Below are positions 56,429-59,051 of a stretch of DNA of 64,000 bases, piece by piece (position 1 is the stretch's first letter; every line of letters begins with the position of its first letter). The DNA is from Escherichia phage BYEP02. Where the stretch lies: the sequence record OR757454.1; one strand, 5' to 3'. Under the pieces are notes generated by a model. The model was not told the DNA's origin and did not search any database. It saw only the letters and a program-made list of their open reading frames with translations. The position numbers and the translations under genes are program-made.

Positions 56429-57415
56429 GCATTAGCTCATTTACCTAAATTCACACAAGTAAATAATAGTTCAACTTTTAAATTACGGTTTAGATGTCCT
56501 GTTTGCGGAGATTCAAAAACCGACCAAAATAAAGCCCGTGGATGGTATTATGGTGATAATAATGAAGGAAATATTCATTGTTATAACTGTAACTATCATG
56601 CACCAATCGGAATATATTTAAAGGAGTTTGAACCTGATTTATATCGTGAGTATATCTTTGAAATAAGAAAAGAAAAAGGTAAAAGTCGTCCAGTAGAAAA
56701 ACCTAAAGAACTTCCTAAACAACCTGAGAAGAAAATAATTAAATCTCTTCCGTCATGTGTTAGATTAGATAAACTGGCGGAAGACCATCCAATTATAAAA
56801 TATGTAAAAGCTCGTTGTATTCCAAAGGATAAATGGAAATATCTTTGGTTTACAACCGAATGGCCTAAATTGGTTAATAGCATAGCACCGGGAACATATA
56901 AAAAGGAAATTTCTGAGCCTCGTCTTGTTATTCCAATTTATAATGCTAATGGAAAAGCTGAGTCGTTTCAAGGACGTGCATTAAAGAAAGATGCTCCTCA
57001 AAAATATATCACCATCAAAGCTTATCCTGAAGCAACAAAAATCTATGGAGTCGAACGAGTTAAAGATGGTGATGTATATGTTCTAGAAGGACCTATAGAT
57101 TCACTTTTTATTGAAAATGGTATAGCTATTACGGGTGGTCAATTAGACCTAGAAGTTGTTCCATTTAAAGATAGACGAGTGTGGGTTTTAGATAATGAAC
57201 CTCGTCACCCTGACACTATTAAACGAATGACTAAATTAGTTGATGCAGGAGAAAGGGTTATGTTTTGGGATAAATCTCCCTGGAAATCAAAAGATGTTAA
57301 TGATATGATTAGAAAGGAAGGTGCAACCCCTGAACAAATTATGGAATATATGAAAAATAATATTGCCCAGGGGTTGATGGCTAAAATGCGGCTATCTAAA
57401 TATGCCAAGATTTAA
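56387..57415 (+). CDS. 61: DNA primase gp61
   Basis: 342 aa; zinc ribbon CPVCGDS...CYNCNYH; matches T4 gp61. Confidence 0.95.
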   Translation: MSSIPWIDNEFAYRALAHLPKFTQVNNSSTFKLRFRCPVCGDSKTDQNKARGWYYGDNNEGNIHCYNCNYHAPIGIYLKEFEPDLYREYIFEIRKEKGKSRPVEKPKELPKQPEKKIIKSLPSCVRLDKLAEDHPIIKYVKARCIPKDKWKYLWFTTEWPKLVNSIAPGTYKKEISEPRLVIPIYNANGKAESFQGRALKKDAPQKYITIKAYPEATKIYGVERVKDGDVYVLEGPIDSLFIENGIAITGGQLDLEVVPFKDRRVWVLDNEPRHPDTIKRMTKLVDAGERVMFWDKSPWKSKDVNDMIRKEGATPEQIMEYMKNNIAQGLMAKMRLSKYAKI

Positions 57416-57612
57416 ATTAACCCAACTAAAGCAAATGCTAGATCTACGAATGTATCAAGAGTAACTACTGGAATATTAACACCATGCGCAATTGCAATTG
57501 GTGATAAAATAAAGTTCCAGAGTAAAATTCCTACCATAGCAGAAATAGTAAAAGCTATACGTTTTTTATTACCTTTTATGGCATTAACAAGTGCCATTAA
57601 TTTTTGTACCAT
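57412..57612 (-). CDS. small membrane protein (66 aa), the only minus-strand gene in the window
   Basis: Reverse-strand ATG with GGAGGA RBS 5 nt upstream; two hydrophobic segments; convergent with gene 61. Confidence 0.5.
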   Translation of the reverse strand: MVQKLMALVNAIKGNKKRIAFTISAMVGILLWNFILSPIAIAHGVNIPVVTLDTFVDLAFALVGLI

Positions 57613-57656
57613 ATGTCCTCCTTTAAATTAATATTTATCACAAATTTCATAAATTT

Positions 57657-57686
57657 GTTTACTTTCTCAGCTTGTTATGGTATTAT
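57657..57686 (+). promoter_or_regulatory. T4 early-type promoter (GTTTAC, 18 nt, TATTAT)
   Basis: Upstream of the 57712 ORF and dam. Confidence 0.55.
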
Positions 57687-57711
57687 AAAATAAATTGCTG
57701 AGGATGATATA

Positions 57712-58272
57712 ATGATTAATAAAATTGTGCATGAAATGGCTTTAAACGGAGATTCATATAAAATATCTGCCGTAGTTGAAAATTTCATACTTAATAAAGT
57801 AAAAGAATATTTCACTGATTGTTCAGTTAGTTATCAAGAAAAAATGGTTTTAACCGATGATACTGAAAAATCAAATAATTTGTTTTGCTCTAATTTTATA
57901 ACTAAGAAGCGTACTAGAAGATTTGATATTGTTATTTCTCGCAACGGTAAAAAGCATATAATTGAAATTAAACATCAAGTTGGTGGAGGTACAGCTATTG
58001 ATTCGGTTGGAATATATTTAGAAGATAAAGAGAAATTAAAAGAATACACAAAAACTGAAAACCCCGTGTCATTGATGATATTAGATTTTTTGCCATGCGG
58101 ATATTATCCACGTAATAAATGGACAAAAAGAGAATCATTTACTGATAATCCAACTATCCAAGCAAGGTTTAATGAATATGCTAAATCACAAAACGTGTTA
58201 GTATTACTATCAAATACATATGATGAAGAATTATATAATTCGTTTTTTGCTGCAATAAATGAGAGAATATAA
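57712..58272 (+). CDS. PD-(D/E)xK nuclease-like protein translationally coupled to dam
   Basis: Motif [20 protein letters not shown] (D ... E-x-K on consecutive beta-strand-like segments); stop overlaps dam ATG by 1 nt. Confidence 0.45.
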
Positions 58273-59051
58273 TGCTAGGAGCTATCGCGTATACAGGTAA
58301 TAAACAATCATTATTACCTGAACTTAAGCCTCATTTTCCAAAATATGACAGATTCGTGGATTTATTTTGTGGAGGTTTATCAGTGTCTTTGAACGTCAAT
58401 GGTCCTGTATTGGCCAATGATATTCAAGAACCAATTATTGAAATGTATAAGCGTCTTATTAATGTATCATGGGATGACGTTTTAAAAGTAATAAAGCAAT
58501 ACAAACTATCAAAAACATCAAAAGAAGAGTTTTTGAAATTACGTGAAGATTATAATAAAACTAGAGATCCTCTTTTACTTTATGTTCTTCATTTTCATGG
58601 ATTTAGTAATATGATTCGTATAAACGATAAAGGAAATTTTACTACTCCGTTTGGAAAAAGAACTATAAACAAAAATAGTGAAAAACGCTTTAATCACTTT
58701 AAGCAAAATTGTGATAAAATAATCTTTAGTTCATTGCATTTTAAAGATGTCAAAATTCTAGACGGCGATTTTGTATATGTAGATCCTCCGTATCTCATAA
58801 CAGTTGCTGATTATAATAAATTTTGGTCAGAAGAAGAAGAAAAAGACCTTTTAAATCTTTTAGATTCTTTAAATGACAGAGGAATAAAATTTGGGCTGTC
58901 GAATGTTTTAGAGCATCACGGAAAGGAAAACACTCTTCTTAAAGAATGGTCTAAAAAATATAATGTTAAGCATCTTAATAAAAAATACGTCTTTAACATA
59001 TATCATTCCAAAGAAAAGAATGGAACTGATGAAGTATATATTTTTAATTAA
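58272..59051 (+). CDS. dam: DNA adenine methyltransferase Dam
   Basis: 259 aa; DPPY motif; FxGxG-type motif FCGGLSV; matches T4 Dam. Confidence 0.9.

Follow-up and report, generated by a model that had tools for sequence, protein, structure and literature searches.

A conserved restriction-enzyme-like gene coupled to the T-even Dam methyltransferase in T4-type phages

Restriction enzymes of the DpnII type cut unmethylated GATC, are blocked by G6mATC and are paired with methylases of the Dam family (PMC12707154). Pairs of this kind also occur in viruses: in the chlorovirus PBCV-1, the CviAI system consists of the endonuclease A579L and the methyltransferase M.CviAI (A581R), and the viral genome carries G6mATC (PMC7248222). 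In T-even bacteriophages, the GATC methylase is known as an orphan: T4 Dam is the textbook solitary phage methyltransferase and has been studied for decades, and its benefit to the wild-type phage is still unclear. Here we analyse a stretch of 64,000 nucleotides from Escherichia phage BYEP02 (OR757454.1; "the window"), a segment of a Tequatrovirus (T4-type) genome in which dam directly follows a gene for a 186-amino-acid protein with the predicted fold of a restriction endonuclease (hereafter R-like). A first, sequence-only reading of the window had noticed this open reading frame (ORF) between primase and dam and had likened the nuclease-Dam pair to a restriction-modification (R-M) or methyl-directed cleavage module; the genes lie exactly where it had put them.

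The locus shares features with each of these systems and is identical to none. DpnII/MboI enzymes (PF04556, for example in the DpnII cassette of Streptococcus pneumoniae) likewise have a D12/Dam methylase of the GATC class as partner, and their catalytic core aligns with that of the R-like protein (E...D...E-x-[K/N]...GGG[T/S]). However, DpnII has ~288 residues as compared with 186 here, the N-terminal third being absent from the phage protein, and it carries E-x-N where the phage protein has the canonical E-x-K. DpnII is also a bacterial enzyme, whereas R-like comes from a virulent phage whose DNA contains hydroxymethylcytosine, with R placed before M and overlapping codons. CviAI provides the likeness of a virus-encoded R-M pair for GATC, but its carrier is a eukaryotic giant virus whose endonucleases are packaged in virions (PMC7248222), and a BFVD search detected no structural or sequence relationship between CviAI and the phage protein. 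A further counterpart is the locus of the T4 orphan Dam, where a methylase with 98% identity occupies the same position between genes 61 and 56; the difference is that the nuclease gene precedes dam here and in T2 and is absent in T4.

The R-like protein falls into PHROG 8706, a family of unknown function. It has no significant Pfam family, only noise in the NCBIfam scan and no match in a sequence search of the PDB; neither the Pfam nor the NCBIfam scan indicated homology to a non-nuclease family. We found no literature on the gene, which is annotated everywhere as "hypothetical protein". An exhaustive hidden Markov model search of 1.84 billion representative proteins returned 12 matches, all of them phage-type or fragments, and no bacterial homologue. 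To these, a scan of IMG/VR added one near-identical locus and a metagenome scan three loci, one of which is a new lineage at 44% identity (P0008, P0010, P0016 and P0017 were excluded from the homology set as chimeric or low-complexity matches).

An AlphaFold2 model built from eight sequences was confident (predicted local distance difference test score 81.7, predicted template modelling score 0.79) and contains the alpha-beta-beta-beta-alpha-beta core of PD-(D/E)xK nucleases. With this model, Foldseek retrieved only PD-(D/E)xK nucleases from the PDB: the top neighbours are sequence-specific Type II restriction enzymes, with the repair and recombination enzymes Vsr, RecU, Hjc, Mus81 and Bax1 at lower ranks. 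In BFVD, the Dhakavirus orthologue was the sole close match. The structural neighbours include Type IIP enzymes of the MunI/EcoRI kind, at a sequence identity of just 12%; MunI recognises CAATTG, and the fold likeness is uninformative on the recognition sequence.

The candidate active site is equally well defined. The D...E-x-K arrangement picked out by the sequence-only reading corresponds to D72...E85-I-K87, within the peptide at residues 70-89, and these residues together with E23 are invariant in the eight-sequence alignment of the family (A3), which extends down to 32% identity. In the predicted structure, E23 lies on the first long helix, D72 on strand 2 and the E85/K87 pair on strand 3. 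This is the arrangement of the superfamily, in which strands 2 and 3 carry D...(D/E)-x-K, usually joined by an acidic residue from the first helix. R69, K81, H82, H88, Q89 and a GTAIDS motif are also invariant in A3. The ratio of non-synonymous to synonymous substitution rates (dN/dS) is 0.04-0.06 between close alleles, with 16-19 synonymous versus 3-5 non-synonymous changes, and 0.14-0.17 at ~60% identity, similar to dam; ~148 genomes carry the ORF intact and at full length, as do lineages as distant as 32% identity. Because of the low dN/dS, the invariant residues and the confident model, we conclude that this ORF is a functional gene under selection, with a product predicted to have a nuclease fold and a complete canonical active site.

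The sole family-level sequence signals of the R-like family point to DpnII-type GATC restriction enzymes. The Pfam DpnII profile was the top match for four of the eight members, with P0009 scoring best (E 8.3e-5, 22.5 bits) and the window protein reaching 16.8 bits (E 0.0045), below the gathering score of 23 bits; these matches span profile positions ~143-235 of 278 only. The PADLOC model PDLC03548, which we identify as the DpnII family model from the match of a genuine DpnII to it (8.5e-127), matches three of the eight members (best E 5.3e-6). A second PADLOC model, PDLC03569, has 205 positions corresponding to DpnII residues 95-286 and matches one member weakly; that such a short DpnII-related model exists implies that compact enzymes of the DpnII lineage exist as well. 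A validated DpnII query (full-length Pfam DpnII match at 2.7e-100; 99% identity to P0018), served to collect 17 family members into an alignment of low diversity (A4; at least 63% identity). When A3 was compared with this low-diversity alignment, hhalign returned an E value of 3.9e-4 and a probability of 35.6% over 81 columns, pairing E23, D72 and E85 with the invariant DpnII residues E152, D201 and E214, GGGT with GGS, and K87 with N216. The DpnI and MutH/Sau3AI families gave no match in any profile scan of R-like members, and DpnII has no solved relative in the PDB. The relationship to DpnII is thus suggestive and consistent, yet it stays under every curated threshold, and the R-like protein should not be filed as a member of the DpnII family.

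The product of the neighbouring dam gene is a D12-class methyltransferase identical to T4 Dam at 253 of 259 positions, and, according to the T4 record (NC_000866), Dam makes N6-methyladenine in GATC on DNA with modified or unmodified cytosine; R-like is thus accompanied by a methyltransferase of defined and potentially genome-protective specificity. That the two genes overlap by one base had been proposed from the sequence alone and is the case: the R-like TAA and the dam ATG have one base in common (...ataTAATGcta), and the last R-like codons supply the ribosome-binding site of dam (GAGAGA). This linkage goes well beyond the window. In each of the ~11 lineages found, namely the window, T2, EP01, BMB16, Dhakavirus MX01 and metagenomic lineages at 63, 59, 57, 49, 44, 33 and 32% identity, a D12/Dam gene lies directly downstream of R-like, overlapping or abutting it except in T2, such that endonuclease-like and methyltransferase genes are adjacent throughout. 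The exact junction varies among the 11 loci compared: TAATG occurs in six (the window, EP01, MX01, L003, L014 and L015), an abutting TAA-ATG in one (L004-L008) and an ATGA overlap in one (L013), while the two most distant members overlap by 20 nt (L010) and 35 nt (L009). T2 has a gap of 13 nt between the R-like stop and dam, which is explained by its frameshifted allele. In addition, L026 has a 7-nt overlap. Dam is the better conserved partner, at 52% identity in the case where the nuclease has 32%. In L010 (1574-3844), a metagenomic contig from a distant T4-like phage, the two genes lie directly upstream of a rIIA homologue, and in L026 the pair is found amid unrelated genes. Since the pair occurs in these other neighbourhoods and not only between 61 and 56, it moves as a unit.

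Comparison with the classic T-even phages reveals how the orphan state of T4 Dam arose. The spacer between gene 61 and dam measures 309 bp in T4 versus 856 bp in the window: in T4, a deletion of 548 bp bounded by copies of the 8-bp direct repeat ATCACAAA has left the last ~25 R-like codons as a leader of dam, with its ribosome-binding site. As the R-like gene was lost through this deletion, the solitary Dam of T4 is a derived state. T2 retains an R-like gene 99% identical to that of the window, in which a run of five T instead of six replaces the last seven residues and abolishes the stop/start overlap with dam. RB14-type phages have neither gene and show the order 61 - 66-amino-acid ORF - 56; defined against them, R-like and dam form a cassette of ~1.43 kb. 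The sequence-only reading had placed neither R-like nor the 66-amino-acid gene in T4, and this is right for the former, save for the ~25 codons, and wrong for the latter, which T4 keeps intact and 97% identical.

The same pattern is seen across the genus. Among the ~508 Tequatrovirus-like GenBank records with the locus, dam is present in 183 and R-like in 148-151, in 147 of them contiguous with dam; by difference, ~32-35 records have dam only, ~325 have neither gene and none has R-like without dam. R-like upstream of dam is thus carried by roughly one in three T4-type phages, the classic T2 among them but not T4, and the endonuclease-like gene never occurs without the methylase, while the solitary methylase does occur. 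This distribution (both genes, methylase alone, neither, and never the nuclease alone) is what the decay of an R-M system predicts.

Altogether, we put at about even the chance that R-like and Dam constitute a two-gene Type II R-M cassette in a lytic T4-type phage, R-like being a compact PD-(D/E)xK endonuclease. The fold, the invariant residues, purifying selection, adjacency to Dam, presence and absence as a unit and the T4 deletion support this directly, and the R-M-like interpretation first proposed from the letters alone is supported, as far as computation reaches, by the conserved residues, the lack of homology to non-nuclease families, the DpnII affinity and the conserved Dam adjacency. 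Beyond this, we infer catalytic activity, a GATC specificity, a block by N6-methyladenine and a biological target, along the following lines. Both proteins would be made from one transcript, with translation of Dam coupled to termination of the nuclease via TAATG, and this coupling would ensure that the methylase is made whenever the nuclease is. E23, D72, E85 and K87 are predicted to bind Mg2+ and cut DNA, most likely at unmethylated GATC in the manner of DpnII/MboI. GATC methylation by Dam would shield the phage genome, to which glucosyl-hydroxymethylcytosine probably adds protection. Possible targets would be DNA that lacks GATC methylation when it enters the infected cell or replicates there, whether from co-infecting or superinfecting phages, from relatives without Dam or in Dam-negative hosts.

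Several observations weigh against an R-M cassette, and the most serious concerns its target. Host DNA would be protected, since the usual hosts (E. coli, Shigella, Yersinia and Salmonella) are Dam-positive, which leaves the enzyme with no evident selective target; this is the main weakness of the proposal. The affinity to DpnII is also incomplete: no R-like member reaches the PF04556 gathering threshold, the two most distant members have no DpnII match, the hhalign probability of 36% is sub-threshold, and the 186-residue protein departs from the ~280-residue DpnII architecture by lacking its ~130-residue N-terminal part. That R-like never occurs without dam could partly reflect adjacency and shared ancestry rather than toxicity. 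Finally, R-like is dispensable, being lost in T4, frameshifted at its C-terminus in T2 and absent, with the whole cassette, from most Tequatroviruses.

GATC depletion of the phage genome was considered as a footprint of the nuclease and rejected. GATC is the most depleted 4-bp palindrome of the window (69 observed versus 200 expected), but the same holds for T4 and RB14, all three being about three-fold under-represented: the ratio of observed to expected sites is 0.34 in the window, 0.33 in T4, which lost R-like, and 0.29 in RB14, which has neither R-like nor dam. As T4 and RB14 are equally depleted, this is a lineage-wide trait that lends the R-M cassette no specific support, and we count it with the points against.

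Since Dam-positive hosts offer a methyl-blocked enzyme no obvious target, while a methyl-dependent one could cut nearly every host GATC, R-like might instead be an active nuclease that adenine methylation does not block, either methyl-dependent like DpnI or methyl-indifferent like Sau3AI. It would then attack cytosine-containing DNA of hosts or competitors while glucosyl-hydroxymethylcytosine shields the phage, and Dam would act as a marker sensitising foreign DNA or be a historical passenger. The evidence from fold, active site and selection is the same for such an enzyme as for an R-M endonuclease, and cytosine modification already shields T-even DNA from most endonucleases. The sequence affinity, however, is to DpnII, an enzyme blocked by N6-methyladenine, the families of DpnI and MutH/Sau3AI being found in no scan; the single-domain model of 186 residues has neither a winged helix nor another methyl-reading domain; and for a mere passenger, the tight coupling of Dam across lineages at 32% identity is less expected than for a protective partner. 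We consider this possibility rather unlikely. The same tight coupling could mean that the two proteins form a stoichiometric complex, and the PD-(D/E)xK fold is also that of Vsr, RecU, Hjc, Mus81 and Bax1, which raises the case of a restriction-fold protein in a role other than restriction, be it a structure-specific or repair nuclease that reads GATC methylation to tell strands or the age of DNA apart, with MutH-like logic, or a DNA-binding partner or regulator of Dam. Invariance of the full catalytic tetrad speaks against a purely regulatory role, sequence-specific restriction enzymes lead the structural neighbours, MutH and Vsr are absent from the sequence scans, and T4 Dam functions without the R-like protein that T4 has lost; the chance we give to such a role is small.

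R-like and dam form a discrete insertion, present or absent between the conserved genes 61 and 56, and this is the typical layout of homing genes: the seg and mob genes of T-even phages (such as segF) are also optional insertions between conserved early genes that vary among close relatives, and T4 has segF just downstream, adjoining gene 56. R-like might accordingly be a free-standing homing endonuclease with a PD-(D/E)xK fold, cutting at or near the cassette-less 61/56 junction of related phages, with recombinational repair after co-infection spreading nuclease and dam together as it does seg and mob genes. Yet the known free-standing homing endonucleases of T-even phages, seg and mob included, have GIY-YIG or HNH folds, for which the R-like protein has no Pfam match, whereas the R-like fold is PD-(D/E)xK and the gene is always paired with a methylase. 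The pairing with Dam persists in the other neighbourhoods of L010 and L026, which a locus-bound homing enzyme would not need, and the best matches in structure and sequence are Type II restriction enzymes; homing appears quite improbable to us. Loss in T4, the C-terminal frameshift in T2 and annotation as nothing more than a hypothetical protein would also suit a decaying relic or a chance ORF. Against this stand dN/dS values of 0.04-0.17, ~148 intact genomes, the invariant active site and the confident structure, and we regard it as highly improbable, a functionless relic being excluded by the selection and conservation data.

The features of the locus are collected in Table 1.

Table 1. Features of the region between genes 61 and 56, in window positions.
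Feature	Position	Strand	Remarks
Primase gp61 gene	56387-57415	+	
66-amino-acid small membrane protein gene	57412-57612	-	phrog_2024, 1.5e-31; cassette neighbour only
R-like plus dam cassette	57624-59050		Boundaries to ~3 nt; from comparison with RB14 annotation and sequence
Left copy of 8-bp direct repeat ATCACAAA	57637-57644		Bounds the 548-bp deletion of T4; three-way alignment of window, T2 and T4
Candidate R-like/dam promoter	57658-57686	+	TTTACT - 17 nt - TATTAT with upstream TG; weak
R-like gene (186 amino acids, PD-(D/E)xK restriction-endonuclease-like)	57712-58272	+	Candidate catalytic residues E23, D72, E85, K87
Right copy of 8-bp direct repeat ATCACAAA	58185-58192		T4 sequence picks up again here
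Run of six T	58243-58248	+	Run of five T in T2 and in the T4 remnant
TAATG stop/start overlap	58268-58274	+	R-like TAA 58270-58272; dam ATG 58272-58274
dam, T-even DNA adenine (GATC) methyltransferase gene	58272-59051	+	Pfam PF02086, 6.5e-51
dCTPase gp56 gene	59174-59707	+	

The candidate promoter, which we take to be of the T4 early type, lies within the segment deleted in T4 and is kept in T2. Promoter assignments are suggestions only, because a scan for promoter and terminator consensus sequences in the window returned no more sites than in shuffled sequences. With respect to the empty site of RB14-type phages, the cassette is bounded by AT-rich imperfect direct repeats, TTAAATTAAT (57624-57632) and TTTAATTAAT (59044-59053). 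The sequence at 57300-59200 is 100% identical to that of Escherichia phages slur03, slur08 and slur14 except for a perfect 77-bp tandem duplication (58981-59057 and 59058-59134), which shifts the true right junction of the cassette to ~59127 in this stretch. The duplicated unit comprises the last 71 nt of dam, including the stop codon, followed by ATTGCTT, which resembles a MotA box and belongs to the promoter region of gene 56/oriA; the Dam ORF is unaffected. As its junction occurs in none of 182 matching GenBank phage records, the duplication is either a mutation private to this phage or an artefact of assembly.

The 66-amino-acid gene on the opposite strand was considered as a component of the module and rejected: T4, which has R-like deleted, and RB14, which lacks both R-like and dam, keep it intact, and we therefore class it as a neighbour of the cassette. 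It is also intact in T2, and in distant T4-like phages it persists at ~32% identity, convergent with the primase gene in every one found; in the window the stop codons of the two genes overlap by 2 nt. Its dN/dS of 0.10-0.17 indicates purifying selection. Both this ORF and R-like are thus more than chance ORFs, being under purifying selection and conserved at 30-60% protein identity in distant phages. For the protein, first proposed to have two membrane helices, hydropathy shows one clear transmembrane segment at residues ~19-42 (Kyte-Doolittle ~2.0), which follows a basic N-terminal cluster, and a weaker hydrophobic stretch at the C-terminus. The Shine-Dalgarno sequence of the gene, AAGGAGGA, is strong, and the minus strand resembles a late promoter at 57632-57639 (GATAAATA), where the record of phage Lutter has an 8-nt promoter annotated. 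The T2 and RB14 records label the ORF as RB32ORF030w / RB69ORF029w-like, and the T4 copy (NC_000866, 17738-17938; L002, 3239-3439) is unannotated; the T4 reference annotation thus misses a conserved membrane-protein gene at the dam locus. That it would be the only minus-strand gene of the window, as first proposed, is plausible: it matches phrog_2024, while four other minus-strand ORFs in gaps between plus-strand ORFs match no PHROG, and across the syntenic 50 kb it is the one credible opposite-strand gene that the curated annotation of RB14 contains.

Elsewhere in the window, two tandem gp61.2-like paralogues of 208 amino acids (55157-55783) and 118 amino acids (55785-56141) share the C-terminal motif SIDDQIFNAFMNR(D/G); T4 has the 208-amino-acid form only and RB14 the 118-amino-acid form only. 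A segment of 1.1 kb (1428-2550) is devoid of plus-strand ORFs of at least 60 amino acids, and the minus-strand ORFs in inter-ORF gaps, which include 54217-54453, 2090-2281 and 17097-17255, have no PHROG match.

What is new here is a conserved, uncharacterised partner of the classic T-even Dam which, judged by sequence and structural model, is restriction-enzyme-like and stands next to dam in T2 and in ~80% of the dam-carrying Tequatroviruses. With a nuclease partner, a deletion in T4 and no R-like gene without dam, Dam may be recast as the M half of a phage-borne R-M cassette. If the nuclease is active, the pair would give bacteriophages a counterpart to the R-M systems of chloroviruses, and R-like would found a new compact family of restriction enzymes, possibly a weapon in competition between phages. 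A bolder proposal, which we would call unlikely, is that the GATC R-M cassette of T2 and other T-even phages works and is aimed at other phages and not at the host. If this is true, genomes that co-infect or superinfect without GATC methylation, including those of the dam-less majority of Tequatroviruses, would be destroyed by the nuclease, which would extend to the whole genome the marker exclusion that T4 homing endonucleases are known for. Such a cassette might also have contributed to the three-fold GATC depletion common to the group, and it would provide a long-missing rationale for T-even Dam.

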